NCBI RefSeq assembly: GCF_054482595.1
Contig: NZ_CM137008.1
DNA length: 64,000 nt
Strand: one strand, 5' to 3'
Below the pieces are notes generated by a model. That model was given only the letters and a program-made list of their open reading frames with translations, was not told the origin of the DNA and did no database searches. Below, piece by piece: positions 5,174-14,035 of the stretch; positions within the stretch are counted from its first letter, which is position 1, and every line of letters starts with the position of its first letter. The translations under genes and the position numbers were made by a program.

Positions 5174-5695
5174 TTATTCATCGATGCATTTTATAGAATC
5201 ATCAATGGCCATAATAGTACTATTAACTCTCCACTTTATATTTTTATCATCACTACAAATATTAACTGAATTTATATCAATGATTTTTTTATTCTTATCT
5301 TTTGTTTTATTTACTGTTTCAATGCAATCAGCGGCAAGTTGGAGTGGATTTAGATTTTTCAGATATGGTCTTATGATCTTTCCCTTACTTAATAAATAGC
5401 ATGTATAGGATTCGGAAAGTCCAGCATCTATTTTGTACCTCATTATATTAGATAAGGATGTGAGAAATTCCTTGTTATCATTCGCAGCCATATATGCCAG
5501 TCCGAGTTCAGCCTCTGCGGCCTTACAGGCAAAATAGCTAAGTGAACACGCTTTTCGTCCCTCTTTAGTACTGGCTGATATTAGTGCCCATAATATTGCT
5601 TTGTCTGCCAAATCTAACTCTCTCTGAAATTGTCTTGCAGTAACTGCACTCGCAGAAATAGAGAAAAAAAATACAATTGTTAATAACTTTGCCAT
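5174..5695 (-). CDS. putative secreted (periplasmic) immunity protein for the downstream-most orphan Rhs toxin
   Basis: The 173-aa ORF starts 5 nt after the orphan toxin stop (5701-5703). Its N-terminus MAKLLTIVFFFSISASA/VTA looks like a Sec signal peptide with an AxA site. It is AT-rich like the adjacent toxin tail. I recognise no catalytic motif. Confidence 0.6.
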   Translation of the reverse strand: MAKLLTIVFFFSISASAVTARQFQRELDLADKAILWALISASTKEGRKACSLSYFACKAAEAELGLAYMAANDNKEFLTSLSNIMRYKIDAGLSESYTCYLLSKGKIIRPYLKNLNPLQLAADCIETVNKTKDKNKKIIDINSVNICSDDKNIKWRVNSTIMAIDDSIKCIDE

Positions 5696-5700
5696 ATTTT

Positions 5701-6594
5701 TTAGTCCGTAACTGTTAATGTGCTATCTGGCTCTGAAAATATTAACTCATTTAATTTTTGCATGTCATTAGATGAACCAGTTATACAACCCTCGGAACAG
5801 AATCGAGGTCCTAAAGACGGACCGAAAGCGTTTAAACAACTATGTGTTAAAAATCCATCACGATTATATGTTTCTGTATTTGCTGACGGTACTAAACGTA
5901 TACCATTAGGTTTTCTATTGGTTGCTCCAGGACCATTAACATTCCAGCTCCATACCCCTTGAGGTATTGGACCTCTATTTTGTAAGTGTGTACAACCAGG
6001 ATTATTTTTACATTGCATATTATTACCATTATTACCAGAGGCGACAGGAATAGTAAGCACATCATAAGAGTTATCATCATTTTGCGTATCTGAAACGCAT
6101 GAAAGCATACTTAAAGTTATGCTGTATAAACAGGTCGCTAATCCCAACGGGTCAATATCAGTTATCGGATTCAACGGATACTGATAAAAATTCCATCCCC
6201 CTTTCAGCCCAATCGGATCCTGAGTGATATATCGCCCCTGCAGCGGGTCATAATAGCGGTGGCGGTTGTAATACAGGCCGGACTCCTCATCATACTGCTG
6301 CCCCGGCAGGCGGATAAGCTGCTGCAGCTGATGCGGGTTCTCTTCATTCAGCAGGTTGCCCCACTCATCGTATTCTGCGCACCATTCTGTAGCACCTTCC
6401 GTGCTGATAAGCGCCAGCGGCAGGCCGCGATGGTCGCAGTGGTACAGGTGGATTTTTCGCGCCGGCGTGTACACCGGGTCCATCTGGTTTTGCATCTGCG
6501 CCACCGTCAGGCCGCACGATGCCAGCCAGCGGCGGCTTTCCTCACTCACCCGGTCAGCCAGGATTTCACTTTCCAGCCGGTCGAGCATCTGCAC
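5701..6594 (-). CDS. orphan Rhs C-terminal fragment: about 150 aa of Rhs core, DPLGL, then a 145-aa toxin tail with an L,D-transpeptidase-fold (Tlde1/DUF2778-like) signature
   Basis: Residues (M)[23 protein letters not shown]...[27 protein letters not shown] repeat the rhsA core 3' end. DPLGL lies at 6139-6153. The tail (5704-6138) contains GPIPQGVW and FLTHSC-x13-SEGCI. There is no ATG with a Shine-Dalgarno at the 5' end; the frame opens just after a TGA and the first starts are GTG 6594 and ATG 6588. It occupies the position of K-12 yibJ. Confidence 0.75.
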
Positions 6595-6620
6595 CGTGCC
6601 GGCGGGAATCCCCCACTGTG
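6154..6620 (-). repeat. third copy of the rhsA core 3' segment (about 0.45 kb)
   Basis: It is near-identical at nucleotide level to 10319-10790 and 8448-8915. For example, ggatcctgagtgatata.cgcccctgcagcgggtcataatagcggtggcggttgtaatacaggcc is present in all three. Confidence 0.9.
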
Positions 6621-6635
6621 CATAGGCAACTCACG

Positions 6636-7478
6636 CTATGAACGCTTCAGCTTATCAATAGCGGAAGTTATAATTTCATTGTCATCAAACTTGTACAACA
6701 TAGTATCTAAAACAGGAAGTAGCGTTTTATCACCTAATTCACCCGCAGCTTCAATGATATCATCATAAACAGTATTTTTTTTTAACTCATCGCATAAAAC
6801 AGATAAAACCCTTTTATCTTTTCTGTAGGAAAGTCAGATTATTGCTTCAATACGGACTTCCTCATTTTTATCCTGAAGCATCTCCACAAAATAATCCCTA
6901 ATATCACTATTATCATATTTATTGATATTTATTGCAAATGCGGCCCAGTTTCTGACATCTCCATTTGGATCTTTTAACAGATTAATCAATAGTGGAATTG
7001 TTGCTTTATCATTGATAACAGAAATAGCAAATGCTGTAGCACGTCTGACATTAGTCGATTTATCAAAAGCAGTAATTTGAGATTGTTCTACTATTTTAGG
7101 TGAATAATTTGGGTTTTTCTTGCATCGCTGAGCCGTTGACTCGATTGCCGTAGCTCGAACGCAAGCGCTCTTATCATTCAATGCCATATTGTTCAAAATA
7201 TTAAAAACATTATCTTCGCATTTTTTGCAAATTTTTATTTGCCCGAGTATAAATGCTCCGATATCTCTACGGATATAATTTTTATCAGAGCAGAACTCAA
7301 TTGCCAATCTAACAGCGTCTTGCCCACCTCTTAACTGTAATACTCTGGCAGATGAAATCCTTTTCAAGGAATTGTGATCATCAAGTAAGCGAAATAATTC
7401 ATCATCATTTAGTTTCTTACATTGATTATATAAACCATACTCTTTACTTGCCTTTCTTTTCTGGTATGTATTTGACAT
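6636..7478 (-). pseudogene. yibA: HEAT-repeat protein YibA (K-12 RhsA-associated immunity-type gene) interrupted by an in-frame TGA
   Basis: MSNTYQKRKASKEYGLYNQCKKLNDDELFRLLDDHNSLKR... matches my memory of K-12 YibA (280 aa). The frame reads ...GAA GCA ATA ATC TGA CTT TCC TAC AGA AAA GAT, with TGA at 6834-6836. It continues in the same frame to TAG at 6636-6638, encoding ...LSYRKDKRVLSVLCDELKKNTVYDDIIEAAGELGDKTLLPVLDTMLYKFDDNEIITSAIDKLKRS. The total is 281 codons, the K-12 length. Confidence 0.85.
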
Positions 7479-7498
7479 TGCAGGAACCTCCACAAAGG

Positions 7499-7540
7499 CT
7501 ATCTTTTTTTATCGTTTGACTGTCTGGAGTCCTCCACCTA
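7499..7540 (-). other. relic of the 3' end of a K-12-type rhsA toxin tail, still 20 nt upstream of yibA
   Basis: The reverse strand reads TAG GTG GAG GAC TCC AGA CAG TCA AAC GAT AAA AAA AGA TAG, encoding ...SRQSNDKKR*. I recall this as the C-terminus of K-12 RhsA. The 20-nt spacer to the yibA ATG matches the K-12 arrangement as I remember it. Confidence 0.6.
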
Positions 7541-7582
7541 CTCTGCCATCAGCGCACACGATGTTTGATTATCCTTACATAC

Positions 7583-7966
7583 TTATTTTCCGTGGCCAAA
7601 ATTCAGAATTCTCCCATCATTTTTGCCTATTTCTATAATAAAAACCCCACCAGCAATTTGGTCTGAGTGAATGGTACCTTCAACAACCCAACTTGTTGTT
7701 AACTCAGTGATTTCGTATGGTTTTTCTTCTTCTGCGGCATCCTGTCCATAACGATTCTTAACATATATCTCAGCTAATTCCAATGCTATAGCTTTATTTT
7801 TAACCAAATTTCTAACGGTATATTTACCTTCACTTTCATACTTGCGCATTATTTTAATATTATTATTACACTGCGCCCATGTGTTGTATGTAAAAACAAA
7901 CAAAGATACAATGACACATTTCCTAAACAATATTTTTTTACATATTACCATGAACTCTGCAGACAT
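7583..7966 (-). CDS. YbbC/YhhH-type (NTF2-fold) Rhs immunity protein with probable signal peptide
   Basis: The 127-aa ORF contains ...[42 protein letters not shown]...[22 protein letters not shown]. This closely resembles K-12 YbbC/YhhH, the genes immediately 3' of rhsD and rhsB. The hydrophobic N-terminus is [24 protein letters not shown]. It overlaps the upstream toxin ORF by 29 nt, so the true start is uncertain (7966 or 7951). Confidence 0.75.
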
Positions 7967-9407
7967 TAGGTAATCCTTTTCCGTTTGTTATTTCCTTCCC
8001 GTGGTTATCTATTGCTTTAAAATTACCACTGGGCGTACCTAAATAAAATGACTTGATATTGTTATCTTTACTTTTAACTATTTTCTCATCTTTACCTGAA
8101 AATATTTCGTCCCAATATTCTCCATGACTATCTGCACCATGAGTATGATAAGCTGATACTTTCTCAGTACCATTAGGGCAAGGGCTATTGAATGGATATG
8201 ATCCTTTTCTTTCTCCTCGGTTAGGTGCTGTTGAGAAATATCTGCCACTATTATCCTTACATATTAAACCAGCGAACTCTTTATCTTCGCAAATAGATTG
8301 GCTATTTATTTTATTTAAGGCGTCATATGCGGTGCTATCTATAGAATCAAATTTATCTGGACCTATCATAGCGGATAGTGTGCCGCAAAGACCATTAGTA
8401 CATGCCCCCGATTTTGCATCCTCCCACATAGATAAACCCAGGGGGTCGATGTCTGATATCGGATTCAATTGATATCCATACAGGTTCCATCCCCCCTTCA
8501 GCCCAATCGGATCCTGAGTGATATACCTCCCCTGCAGCGGGTCATAATAGCGGTGGCGGTTGTAATACAGGCCGGACTCCTCATCATACTGCTGACCCGG
8601 CAGGCGGATGAGCTGCTGCAGCTGGTGCGGGTTCTCTTCATTCAGCAGGTTGCCCCATTCATCGTATTCTGCGCACCATTCTGTAGCCCCTTCCGTGCTG
8701 ATAAGCGCCAGCGGCAGGCCGCGATGGTCGCAGTGGTACAGGTGGATTTTTCGCGCCGGCGTGTACACCGGGTCCATCTGGTTTTGCATCTGCTCCACCG
8801 TCAGGCCGCACGATGCCAGCCAGCGGCGGCTTTCCTCACTCACCCGGTCAGCCAGGATTTCACTTTCCAGCCGGTCGAGCATCTGCACCAGCACCGGCGG
8901 GAACACCACACTGCCACCGTCTTCGCCGCCGGACTGCTGAAGGGCATCCGCCAGGCTGCGGCGCTGCGTTTTCGCCAGCTCACCGGTGGCAGTTTCGACC
9001 CTGATGAGTGGCGTGAAGCTCCCCGGCTGATAAATCGTCTGGATGCGGCTCCTGTCGTTCTGTATCGTGGTCAGCCGGTCGCCGTCCCAGCCGTACCAGG
9101 TCACTTGCGGTTTCCGTGACAGCGACATCCAGCCCGTCAGGTCCCGTTCACGCCGCCACACCCGTTTTGCCACCCTGCGGCCCAGCGGGTCGTAAAGATA
9201 GCGACTTTCGACCAGCGGCTCTGCATATTGTGTCCGCGTGTAGTGCACCAGCCGGTGCTGACTGTCGTAATGGTACCGGTGGGTGCGCTCATCATCCGTG
9301 CGGATAACCCCTTCCGGGATGAGGTCGGTTTTCTCCGTCAGCCTGCCGTGACGGTCATACCGGTAAAGATAGTGCGCGTCACGGGCGATACGGTTATCCG
9401 GCCACAT
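7938..9407 (-). CDS. orphan Rhs C-terminal fragment: about 325 aa of Rhs core, DPLGL, then a 164-aa RhsD/RhsB-type tail (DUF4329-like)
   Basis: [29 protein letters not shown]... duplicates the rhsA core. DPLGL lies at 8433-8447. The tail [17 protein letters not shown]...[15 protein letters not shown]...[23 protein letters not shown] resembles the K-12 RhsD C-terminus as I recall it. The first ATG is an internal core Met with no Shine-Dalgarno, so the fragment is probably silent unless recombined. Confidence 0.8.
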
Positions 9408-9497
9408 GCTGAGGGCGCTGTCCGGGTGCAGCTCCGGGTCGGGCAGGCGGTTACCTGCCGGGTCTGTGGCATACGGGATATCAATGCCCAGGTTACA
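8448..9497 (-). repeat. second copy of the rhsA core 3' segment (about 1.0 kb)
   Basis: It aligns with 10319-11367 with only scattered substitutions. Protein-level differences include RHGRL/RYGRL, EGVIRT/EGGIRT, ELAKTQ/ELARTQ and ATEWC/ATAWC. Similarity decays at [10 protein letters not shown] versus [10 protein letters not shown]. Confidence 0.9.
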
Positions 9498-9524: not shown

Positions 9525-9851
9525 TTATTTGTTTATAATGCGCTTACTTAATACAAACCATTGAATATACCCTCCTGACAGAAAATAAAGCCATATTATT
9601 ATCGCCATAATATACTTACTATCAATCCTTACGCCAATAATGTCTGATACAGTCCCTATAAATATTAGAGCAATAAAGAATACTATGCCTGTTGGAAAAC
9701 ATATTACCATCATTCCATAAGACATGAGACTAATTAACTCGCTCACATCACGAGTGGAGTCTAATAGTGAAAGTCTATGCATGGAAAAGAATAGTATTAA
9801 AAGCGATAAAGCCAGCCATATAGCTCTGAATAAAAAAATAATATATTTCAT
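9525..9851 (-). CDS. small polytopic membrane protein, presumed cognate immunity (RhsI) for the rhsA C-terminal toxin
   Basis: The 108-aa ORF has three hydrophobic segments (IIFLFRAIWLALSLLILFF, MSYGMMVICFPTGIVFFIALIFIG, IMAIIIWLYFLSGGYIQWFVL). Its ATG (9849-9851) shares one nt with the rhsA TAA (9851-9853), reading TAATG. It is AT-rich. Confidence 0.7.
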   Translation of the reverse strand: MKYIIFLFRAIWLALSLLILFFSMHRLSLLDSTRDVSELISLMSYGMMVICFPTGIVFFIALIFIGTVSDIIGVRIDSKYIMAIIIWLYFLSGGYIQWFVLSKRIINK

Positions 9852-12800
9852 TACATCACTCCGGTGAATACAAATCTAATAAAACGTCCAATGTTATTTC
9901 CGGAGCACTTCATCTTACATGTTTCTAAAGAATCATTAGACCAGTCTTGGCAGTTTTTAAATAGCCCTAAATTTATAGGTGTGAATATATCAGGCAATAC
10001 AGAATAACGCGGCCTTACCTCTTTAAACTTCCCTTTTAAACAGTTCTCCACACAACTATTATCGGTTTCAACGAGGTCACAACGGCCAGCAGCTTCTTTT
10101 GTATCATTACTTGCTTTACCTGGCCCCCATAGACCATCTCCTTTTGATTCTCCCCGTTGGTCTTGGCCACCACAAGTATAGTCCCCTTTACCATCTGGGA
10201 CACAAAGATATTGATGATAGAACGGATTCCCCCATATATCTGGACCGCTTCTTTCACCAGTTCCGCCCATTGAATGCAGTGGCTTAATGCATTTTAGTGT
10301 TTCTAATCCTAATGGATCTATATTTGAGATCGGATTCAACGGATACTGATAAAAATTCCATCCCCCCTTCAGCCCAATCGGATCCTGAGTGATATACCGC
10401 CCCTGCAGCGGGTCATAATAGCGGTGGCGGTTGTAATACAGGCCGGACTCCTCATCATACTGCTGCCCCGGCAGCCGGATAAGCTGCTGCAGCTGATGCG
10501 GGTTCTCTTCATTCAGCAGGTTGCCCCATTCATCATATTCTGCGCACCACGCTGTTGCCCCTTCCGTGCTGATGAGCGCCAGCGGCAGGCCGCGATGGTC
10601 GCAGTGGTACAGGTGGATTTTTCGCGCCGGCGTGTACACCGGGTCCATCTGGTTTTGCATCTGCTCCACGGTCAGGCCGCACGATGCCAGCCAGCGGCGG
10701 CTTTCCTCACTCACCCGGTCAGCCAGGATTTCACTTTCCAGCCGGTCGAGCATCTGCACCAGCACCGGCGGGAACACCACACTGCCACCGTCTTCGCCGC
10801 CGGACTGCTGAAGCGCATCCGCCAGGCTGCGGCGCTGCGTTCTGGCCAGTTCACCGGTGGCAGTTTCAACTCTGATGAGTGGTGTGAAGCTCCCCGGCTG
10901 ATAAATCGTCTGGATGCGGCTCCTGTCGTTCTGTATCGTGGTCAGCCGGTCGCCGTCCCAGCCGTACCAGGTCACTTGCGGTTTCCGTGACAGCGACATC
11001 CAGCCCGTCAGGTCCCGTTCACGTCGCCATACCCGTTTTGCCACCCTGCGGCCCAGCGGGTCGTAAAGATAGCGACTTTCGACCAGCGGCTCTGCATATT
11101 GTGTCCGCGTGTAGTGCACCAGCCGGTGCTGACTGTCGTAATGGTACCGGTGGGTGCGCTCATCATCCGTACGGATACCCCCTTCCGGGATGAGGTCGGT
11201 TTTCTCCGTCAGCCTGCCGTAACGGTCATACCGGTAAAGATAGTGCGCGTCACGGGCGATACGGTTATCCGGCCACATGCTGAGGGTGCTGTCCGGGTGC
11301 AGCTCCGGGTCGGGCAGGCGGTTGCCCGCCGGGTCCGTGGCATACGGGATGCGGATATCCAGATTCGCTGCGGTGGTGTGAACGCCGGTCAGCCTGCCGG
11401 TGGTGCTGTAGCTGTAACTCCGGGTCTGGCGCGGGCTGCTGATGCGGATGAGTTCGCCGTTGTCGTTCCAGGTGTAATCGCGGTCATACTGCAGGCTGTT
11501 CAGGTGCTGACGCTGTAACTGCCCGGCAGGGGTGTAAGCGGTGGTGAGTTCATAACGACCGAAGCTGCGCAGCGTTTCCCGGTGCAGGCGGTCGCGGGTG
11601 AAATCCACCAGCGGTGTGTCGCCGAGCTTCATGCCTGCCAGCCAGCCGCTGCCGTAGGTCAGCCATTCCACGGCGGGCAGGCTGTCCGGTATACAGCGGT
11701 TCGCCAGTCCCTGCGCGTTGTACGCATGTCTGGTCTCATGCTGCCAGAGCAGTGCTTCCGTCTGCGGGTGATGCACCGTCTGGCGCTCACCGGTCAGGCG
11801 GCCTTTCTCATCATACCTGTAATGCACCGCTACCCGGTGCCCTTCGCTGATATGGCTGATGTCTGTCAGCCAGCCACGTTCGTCATACCGCCACCGCTCT
11901 GCGGTTTCACCCTTCACGGTGCGGTGCGTGAGGCGGTCTGCTTCGTCATAGTGCCAGTGGGTGACCAGACCCTCATCCTCGCTGCGGATAAGTTTGCCGG
12001 TCAGGTCGTGGTGATAACGCTGTGTGCGGCCGTCAAAGCCGGTTTCCTGTATCAGCCGGTCAAGTACATCGTAACGGAAGGTGGTGTGGCTGCCGTTTTC
12101 ACTGGTCAGGCGGATGACCCGTCCGGCAGCATCGTATTCCATACTGCGCGTCAGCCCGCCCTGCGTGGTACGGACGGCCTTTCCCCACGCATCGTACTGT
12201 GTCCCGTTTCTGCTGCCGTCCGGGGCAATGACGGCGGTCAGGTCACCGGCGATGTTGTATTCATACCGCGTTTCATGGCCCTGCGTGTCTTTCACGGCAA
12301 TTAACTGTCCACGGCTGTCGTATGCGCGGTACTGGCTCAGCCCTTCCTCGCGGTGCACCGCCGTCATCTGCCCGAAGCGGTCATGGTCATAACGGGTCTG
12401 GTAGCCGGAACAGTCGGTGAAGCTCAGCAACTGGCCGTAACGGCTCCACGTCATGGTTTTCCGGCTGCCGGTGGCATCGTCCGTTGCGCAGGGGAGGTCA
12501 CTGTGTGGATTATCATAACGGTAGCGGGTGATATCGCCGTCAGGGGCGGTTTCCTGAATCAGACGGCCGGATTCATCATATTCCCGGCGCAATTCCAGCC
12601 CGTCAGGCCCGGTGGCTGACGTTAACTGGTTGTGGTGGTTATAGTAAAACGCCGATGCCCTGCCATCCGGCGTGGTTATGCGCGTGATGAGGCCCGTCAC
12701 CACATCCGGGCTGTACTCTGTTGTCCTGCCTGCGGCATCCGTCTGTGCCCTGAGCCTGCCCACGGCGTCAAACTGACTCTGCGTGACGCTGCCGTCCGCG

Positions 12801-14035
12801 TGTTCCTTTTTCACCACCCGCTTCAGCCCGGCTTCGCCCTGCGTGTGCAGCACTTCACGGCGGTCCAGGCTGTCGGTGATGGTGATGCGGTCTTTCTCAT
12901 ACTGATACGTGTAGCTTAAGCCTGCCGGGTTTAGCTGTTCTGTCACCCGCCCGTCGCTGTCGTAACGGTAACGGATTTCCGGCCGGCCCGTGTGACGGTG
13001 CGCCACCATCCGGCCCCGGTATTTATCATCGTAAGTAAAGCTGCGCACCTGTGTATTGCTGCGGTCATACACTGCCGCCAGTTCGCCGCGCGGCGTCCAG
13101 CCATAGCGCACCAGCGGCGCGGCAGGTAAATTCTCCGGGTATTCCGGGTCGTGCGTCAGCCACACGGCAGACAGACGGATGCCGTTGTCCCGGCCATATT
13201 CGGTGTAACCCGGCAGGGTATCAGGAAAAGCGGACGGTTCCGTCCCGCCGGAAATGGCCTGCTGCCGGGCTTCTTCTGCCTGCTGCGCCTGCGTGGTCAG
13301 TACCAGCCGGAAGTGACGCCCGGCACCATCCGTCACGCCGGTGATTTCGCCGCTGAATTCACCGGCGGCTTCGCGGTGGAACGTCTGTGTGCGCCCGAAG
13401 CGGTCCACCAGCCCGGTCAGTACCCGGTACGGCGGCAGCGGCGCAGGCAGCACCTCATCCGCTTCCGGCACCCGCTCACACCACCACCACGGCCCCTGCG
13501 GACTGTTTGTCGCCAGATAACGATGCGGACTTAAGCGGAGTTCTTCCGGCAGCGCCTGCCAGAGTGCGGCCAGCCGGTGACCTTCATCCAGTTTCGCCAC
13601 GCCGCCGCGCACCAGCCACAGTGACTCGCTGCGGCTGTAACCGTCCTCACCGGGAAACAGGTGCTCAAAATACAGGCTTCTGCCGCCGTTATCACTGAGT
13701 ATCAGTGTGTTATCGCGCAGCTGTAAGCGGATATCCGCAGGCATTTTCCAGCCGGGGCCGAGGCTCCCCACCGGCGCGGGCGTTTTTGTCCGGTAACTGC
13801 TGTAGGTGCGGGAGAGGATGAACGGCAGCGGGGCGGGCAGGGCGATGTCGGTTTCACCGGGAAGGACCTTTGCACCGAGCAGGGGATTGACCGGATGGCC
13901 GGACGTCACTCCGCCGGGGCACCCCGAACAGGCCACACCGGTTGGGGCACCGATGCGCACCCCGGCTGAACCCTGAACAATGCTACCGCCATACTGCGTC
14001 ATGTCGCCCTGACGCGCCGCCGGTTTTCCGCTCAT
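9851..14035 (-). CDS. rhsA: Rhs family polymorphic toxin (PAAR-like N-terminus, YD-repeat shell, DPLGL, variable 150-aa Cys-rich C-terminal domain)
   Basis: The ORF is 1394 aa. The N-terminus is [29 protein letters not shown] (literal PAAR). Many YD-type repeats (xYxYDxxGRL) follow, then the core end ...[40 protein letters not shown] (DPLGL at 10304-10318) and the tail at 9854-10303. It is called rhsA from its position next to yibF and yibA, as in K-12. Confidence 0.93.
10319..11367 (-). repeat. rhsA core 3' segment, the master copy of the three direct repeats
   Basis: See 8448-9497 and 6154-6620. All three copies are in the same (minus-strand) orientation. Confidence 0.9.

Follow-up and report, generated by a model that had tools for sequence, protein, structure and literature searches.

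Organisation of the yibF–yibH locus

The DNA analysed here (the window, 64,000 nucleotides) was compared with E. coli XH990 (NZ_CP019359) over stretches of 1,601 nt and 24 kb, and both are identical; window position p equals position 128000 + p of NZ_CP019359. The region of interest is flanked by yibF and yibH; in K-12, this is the rhsA locus. In the window it holds an array of Rhs cassettes (Table 1). The rhsC-type gene, which we predict to be the active head of the array, is followed by ybfB, an orphan rhsB-type fragment, yhhH, yibA, a second orphan fragment with a Tlde1-domain tip and an Imm57-family gene. yhhH begins inside the orphan DUF4329 tip ORF and shares its last 29 nt (7938–7966), and the same overlap is found between rhsB and yhhH in K-12. 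The Tlde1 orphan, whose ORF is open from a GTG at 6594, opens the last cassette of the array; its Imm57 gene is intact in the window and frameshifted in other strains.

Table 1. Features of the Rhs array and of yibA in the window.
Feature	Position	Strand	Details and basis
rhsC-type gene, full length	9851..14035	minus	1,394 aa; PxxxxDPxGL motif; 150-aa tip; RHS_repeat and PF03527 matches; array head
ybfB	9525..9851	minus	directly 3' of the main rhs gene; no Pfam match (annotation, Pfam)
Orphan rhsB-type fragment, 5'-truncated	7938..9494	minus	3' end of core, PxxxxDPxGL motif, DUF4329 tip (annotation, Pfam)
yhhH (Imm-NTF2-2, PF15631)	7583..7966	minus	predicted to confer immunity to the DUF4329 Rhs tip (annotation, Pfam)
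Spacer 3' of yhhH	7531..7582	minus	52 nt; sequence as at the K-12 rhsB locus; recombination junction at 7530/7531
Relic of the Ntox34 (K-12 RhsA) toxin 3' end	7499..7530	minus	32 nt, ...(H)SRQSNDKKR*, non-coding (alignment to K-12 rhsA)
rhsA–yibA intergenic spacer	7479..7498	minus	20 nt; GGAGG ribosome-binding site kept (alignment)
yibA pseudogene	6636..7478	minus	ATG 7478–7476, TAG 6638–6636; 280 sense codons and stop; stop at codon 215
I124N missense relative to K-12	7108..7108	minus	alignment; common to the sister alleles of DSM 103246 and PSJ-14 (A8 frameshift, without TGA)
C196Y missense relative to K-12	6892..6892	minus	alignment; found in 69 genomes and in the intact allele WP_000072870.1
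Premature stop TGA (G215*)	6834..6836	minus	translation and K-12 alignment; GGA in K-12 and about 2,930 other genomes; next base C
A9 homopolymer in yibA	6775..6783	minus	codons 232–235; intact in the window; site of the A8 frameshift in 210 other genomes
Orphan Rhs fragment with Tlde1-domain tip (PF10908)	5701..6606	minus	PxxxxDPxGL motif; 3' of yibA (annotation, Pfam)
Imm57-family immunity gene	5174..5695	minus	after the Tlde1 orphan; intact in the window (annotation, Pfam)

In the yibA cassette, Rhs core fragment, PxxxxDPxGL motif and toxin tip are all missing, and only the 32-nt relic precedes the gene. YibA is a HEAT-repeat protein with Pfam matches to HEAT_2 and HEAT_PBS (the HEAT_PBS match covers residues 144–170), and the K-12 protein has a crystal structure (PDB 1OYZ). 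Pfam assigns the tip of K-12 RhsA to the Ntox34 domain. Poole et al (2011; PMC3150448), citing Vlazny and Hill, state that expression of yibA, the ORF just 3' of rhsA, neutralises the K-12 RhsA toxin. Because a scan between yhhH and yibA for promoters and terminators returned no promoter-like or terminator-like site, the orphan yibA is presumably co-transcribed with the array by read-through transcription, as has been shown for an orphan cdiI gene (PMC3150448).

A single nonsense codon in yibA

Translation identifies codon 215 (TGA, 6836–6834) as the sole in-frame break of yibA. A preceding sequence-only reading of the window had taken the frame to be open apart from this codon, which holds over all 280 sense codons and the terminal stop, and had given a glycine codon, GGA, for K-12 in the context ...EAII-G-LSYRKDK, which is what the alignment with yibA of K-12 MG1655 (NC_000913) gives. 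Its view of the stop as decay depended on K-12 lacking the TGA, and K-12 does lack it. Its product length of 213 aa needs correction: the TGA allele is predicted to yield 214 aa, losing the last 66 of the 280 residues (roughly two HEAT repeats) and keeping 76% of the protein.

Over the whole gene, 840 of 843 nt are identical between the window and K-12 (99.6%). The three differences, I124N, C196Y and G215*, are all non-synonymous; C196Y is a natural polymorphism and not damage. The closest alleles without the TGA, those of DSM 103246 and PSJ-14, share I124N and C196Y and have GGA at codon 215; they carry a 1-nt deletion in the A9 tract (6783–6775) and are annotated as “frameshifted”. Codon 215 encodes glycine in all non-TGA yibA copies aligned, and the residue falls in “EVRIEAIIGL”, which we take to be a conserved motif of PBS-lyase HEAT-like repeats. 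The identical yibA sequence of XH990 is annotated by RefSeq as a pseudogene (“internal stop”). The lesion in the window is an ordinary pseudogene: a known gene with a nonsense mutation, in a type of locus that is known as well. The truncated YibA has presumably lost its function.

To place the allele among other genomes, we used 5,426 complete E. coli genomes; the 3' part of yibA was found in 2,953 of them and the Ntox34 tip (300-nt probe) in 1,787. An exact 57-mer centred on the T of the TGA matched 20 of the 2,953 yibA-bearing genomes, all of them complete, while 2,930 differed by about one base. Thirteen of the 20 match the window at approximately 100% identity across 24 kb of adjoining backbone and constitute one clone, with isolates from humans, pigs, poultry and a duck. 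Among the matches listed, the allele also occurs in 1504D004, 1604D011, ES5, PS10-3 and CM196106, and because the backbone of these genomes is only about 99.0% identical, the allele has persisted and moved beyond one clone.

The recurrence of the identical TGA in 20 independently assembled complete genomes rules out a sequencing error, and the probability that the codon reflects an artefact of sequencing or assembly, or is recoded to selenocysteine, is negligible. Selenocysteine could be considered because selA and selB lie only about 1–4 kb from the rhs array and an 8-bp AU hairpin (6819–6801) is located 15 nt 3' of the TGA. However, neither a SECIS element nor any other Rfam family was detected in 6600–7000, the stability of the hairpin does not exceed that of shuffled sequence (z = −1.05), the hairpin is present in GGA alleles too, and the invariant glycine in the aligned non-TGA copies speaks against selenocysteine.

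It is also unlikely, if less decidedly so, that the stop is no real knock-out, the 214-aa fragment or a product of UGA-C read-through (with Trp) still conferring immunity and the allele being nearly neutral. The retained three quarters of the protein include codons 1–159, where the diverged intact allele described below concentrates its substitutions, and the allele is maintained on several chromosomal backgrounds. A UGA with C as the next base is a leaky (weak) termination context in E. coli, so that some full-length G215W protein may be made. On the other hand, the stability of HEAT solenoids usually depends on their terminal repeats, no in-frame restart codon follows soon after the TGA, and glycine is the only residue seen at codon 215 in the other copies aligned. 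The frameshift at codons 232–235, gained independently in the sister strains, fits a constraint that had already been relaxed. We therefore favour an inactivated yibA.

The toxin relic and the recombination junction

Upstream of yibA, the relic ends in TAG (7501–7499), 20 nt 5' of the yibA ATG. As the sequence-only reading had stated, ...SRQSNDKKR* at this distance is the end of the RhsA toxin: it is the exact C-terminus of K-12 RhsA (...CRHSRQSNDKKR*), and the 32 nt upstream align to the 3' end of rhsA. These 32 nt comprise nine sense codons and a stop, preceded by 2 nt of a His codon. The complete stop-to-stop frame over the relic reads VEDSRQSNDKKR*, of which the leading three codons do not derive from rhsA; what had been described as a relic of 13 codons shrinks to nine sense codons and a stop. 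At the DNA level, the match to K-12 rhsA begins at 7530 and breaks off abruptly at 7531, which puts the junction at 7530/7531, the low edge of the interval 7530–7545 that had been proposed for it. The sequence 5' of the junction has indeed been replaced, although not by a YbbC-like gene alone: the gene is yhhH, a paralogue of ybbC and not ybbC itself, and it is part of a DUF4329-tip/yhhH cassette.

With no cognate toxin adjoining it, yibA is an orphan, as had been supposed. We extended this to whole genomes with a core-free chimeric query in which the yhhH–relic–yibA sequence was combined with the 300-nt Ntox34 probe; the Rhs core was left out of the query because a tip on another rhs core could merge into an existing place. 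Each TGA genome gave a single place, and at megablast sensitivity the K-12-type Ntox34 tip is absent anywhere in the 20 TGA genomes.

Outside E. coli, a scan of YibA relatives for co-occurrence of toxin and antidote comprised six loci only. Neisseria sp. Ec49-e6-T10 (NZ_CP152375), outside the Enterobacteriaceae, encodes a YibA homologue with 44% identity, and a tblastn search upstream of this homologue found no Ntox34-like sequence. In Shigella flexneri SFBU0723 (CP182557 2080761–2087596), the rhs/yibA locus is fragmented into many short frames, reflecting either heavy pseudogenisation or a low-accuracy assembly. The “59% identity” obtained for YibA of this strain is an artefact of the many frameshifts and was left out as evidence.

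Age and spread of the toxin-less arrangement

The junction is not confined to the lineage of the window. At the K-12 rhsB locus (NC_000913, about 3623783–3624234), yhhH is followed by the same 52 nt, the 32-nt relic and the first ~346 nt of yibA, a fragment annotated as the pseudogene yrhC. yrhC differs by eight substitutions, one of which gives a TAA stop, and it stops short of yhhI, an ISEc1/H-repeat element. The yhhH–relic–yibA arrangement at the rhsA locus is present in 1,181–1,185 of the 5,426 complete E. coli genomes, counted at a query coverage of at least 80%; in some of these genomes, for example CFSAN061769, the head gene is a full-length rhsB. Because the junction is common to ~1,180 genomes and to the K-12 rhsB locus, the event that deleted the toxin is old and happened once.

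A further combination of the same elements is found at the rhsC locus of E. coli MT102 (NZ_CP034953 3127932–3136930), next to ybgA and phrB. Here, rhsC–ybfB is followed by an Ntox34 orphan with an intact yibA, and the array continues with a DUF4329 orphan carrying yhhH and a yrhC-like fragment before it reaches ISEc1. This array looks like a product of recombination between rhsA, rhsB and rhsC elements.

Lesions in toxin-less and toxin-linked yibA copies

The TGA is not the only lesion of yibA. The A9-to-A8 frameshift, counted with an exact 89-mer, occurs in 210 of the 2,953 genomes, and 191 of these have the yhhH–yibA arrangement according to a three-part chimeric query whose E-value cut-off was passed only by the exact A8 89-mer. 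Because it is found on at least five distinct yibA haplotypes, four of them orphan, the frameshift is recurrent. In strain 55989 (NC_011748 4137456–4139075), an IS1A element is inserted into the orphan yibA; the head gene of this array, rhsB, has an internal stop. K-12 yrhC, truncated by ISEc1, represents a further lesion in a toxin-less copy.

Considering only the TGA and the A8 frameshift, at least 211 of ~1,181 toxin-less copies are broken (18%) versus at most 19 of ~1,787 toxin-linked copies (~1%). Inactivating lesions are thus about 15–20 times commoner in toxin-less yibA copies, with an odds ratio of ~20 that treats the genomes as independent although they are related, so that a P value means little. 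Independent knock-out events, of which there are at least seven in toxin-less and at least one in toxin-linked copies, point in the same direction. The A8 counts have to be read with the caveat that the A9 tract is a hotspot for sequencing error as well as for mutation, but random homopolymer errors would not split 191:19 against a background of 40:60. In the one toxin-linked A8 case that was inspected, APEC O78, rhsA is frameshifted too. Both rhsA (Ntox34) and the adjoining yibA of this strain (NC_020163 4517244–4522238) are annotated as frameshifted, which may reflect a shared decay of the pair or may stem from homopolymer errors in an older assembly.

An excess of this kind might also arise if inactivation of yibA were selected and not just tolerated, either because expressing an unneeded HEAT-repeat binder is costly or because the A9 tract or the nonsense site serve as on/off switches. 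The repeated origin of A8 on several haplotypes, its presence in 16% of toxin-less copies and the spread of the TGA allele past one clone are in line with such selection. Slippage in an A9 tract, however, is expected of a mutational hotspot, and most orphan yibA copies are intact and under purifying selection. We regard selected inactivation as very improbable and take the lesions to be tolerated in copies on which selection would have been relaxed.

Retention of intact orphan copies

Approximately 82% of the toxin-less yibA copies are free of the two counted lesions, the TGA and A8. The 3%-diverged toxin-less allele WP_000072870.1, which has tyrosine at position 196, is intact in strains 1190, PCN033, JNE070796 and ST70, while in the same four strains frameshifts affect the adjoining yhhH homologue (an NTF2-fold immunity gene), the Imm57 gene and the Rhs fragments. 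In place of an rhs tip, these strains have fragments of pentapeptide-repeat genes upstream. Compared with K-12 yibA, this allele has a dS of 0.098 and a dN of 0.017, and the resulting dN/dS of 0.17 implies that yibA has been under purifying selection. Since the diverged allele combines this ratio with an intact frame among frameshifted neighbours, toxin loss alone does not make yibA neutral.

The sequence-only reading had interpreted the TGA as an immunity gene beginning to decay once its toxin had gone. The association with toxin loss is borne out by the excess of lesions in toxin-less copies; the notion of a beginning is not, given the old junction, the large majority of unbroken copies and the low dN/dS. 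The TGA is instead a late, lineage-restricted loss against a background of long-term retention, and decay is sporadic and recurrent. Retention of yibA would fit a defensive role, since one in three E. coli genomes sampled carries the Ntox34 tip.

Proposed history of the locus

We consider it quite likely that an overwrite deleting the toxin was followed by relaxed but not abolished selection and subsequently by a lineage-specific knock-out of yibA. An ancestral pair of rhsA-Ntox34 and yibA would have been overwritten by a DUF4329-tip/yhhH cassette, with the right-hand crossover falling 32 nt before the rhsA stop, which would have deleted the toxin and kept the ribosome-binding site of yibA. 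The composite of yhhH, 52 nt, the 32-nt relic and yibA would then have spread widely. In the lineage of the window, an rhsC-type tip with ybfB would later have displaced the array once more; yibA is now in its third cassette.

Without a resident toxin, yibA would be unneeded for self-protection and useful only against neighbours armed with Ntox34. Selection on the gene would have weakened without being abolished, and null alleles could arise and persist in some lineages. In the window, a G-to-T change would have turned codon 215 into a stop. Relaxed selection would then be the cause of the lesion excess observed in toxin-less copies.

The locus lends itself to studying the strength of selection on “defensive” orphan immunity genes in E. 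coli: its copies can be counted across genomes, and a crystal structure (1OYZ) is available. What is added here is the ancient junction that the window shares with K-12 yrhC and the marked excess of knock-outs in toxin-less copies. A more far-reaching view would treat the system as a natural experiment on the survival of immunity genes: one ancient junction in ~1,180 genomes, retention presumably owed to the third of E. coli genomes in which the Ntox34 RhsA tip persists, at least seven independent knock-outs that nearly all occurred where the toxin is absent or broken, and an A9 tract that is perhaps a reversible switch. We put this view forward tentatively and regard it as rather doubtful.

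Comparison with known systems

The type of locus is already known, as a Rhs C-terminal displacement array, and the gene has already been flagged by RefSeq. A literature search on yrhC together with yibA and on orphan-immunity pseudogenes in Rhs loci found no paper that describes the junction or the allele. Like the displacement arrays of Jackson et al (2009; PMC2935791), the locus in the window consists of a full-length rhs gene followed by 5'-truncated rhs fragments. The composition of the fragments is also the same as in these arrays and in the orphan toxin–immunity modules of Rhs and CDI systems (Poole et al, 2011; PMC3150448), namely conserved core, PxxxxDPxGL, an alternative tip and a small immunity gene. 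As in the known Rhs/CDI orphan modules (PMC3150448), orphan immunity genes in the window keep their own translation signals. The full-length rhs gene combines YD repeats and the PxxxxDPxGL motif with a variable tip and has a small ORF behind it (ybfB), and the truncated fragments come with tips and immunity genes (DUF4329/yhhH and Tlde1/Imm57). An orphan cassette of a displacement array should keep its toxin tip; the yibA cassette has none. It differs from the cassettes of such arrays as an immunity-only orphan that was made by replacement and not by displacement, and in addition it carries a nonsense mutation.

The window shares with the K-12 rhsA–yibA pair a yibA of 99.6% identity, the 20-nt spacer, the last 32 nt of rhsA and the location between yibF and yibH. 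In contrast to K-12, the toxin is deleted, the head gene is of the rhsC type and yibA carries I124N, C196Y and G215*. Measured against the RhsA(Ntox34)/YibA pair, the window thus has the antidote ortholog and lacks both the adjacent Ntox34 tip and an intact antidote frame.

The closest counterpart of the junction is K-12 yrhC, 3' of rhsB–yhhH, in which yhhH, the 52-nt spacer, the 32-nt relic and the junction to the start of yibA are arranged identically. The two copies differ in what became of yibA: yrhC ends after ~346 nt of the gene at ISEc1/H-repeat and has an internal stop of its own, whereas the copy in the window is full length and interrupted by one stop.
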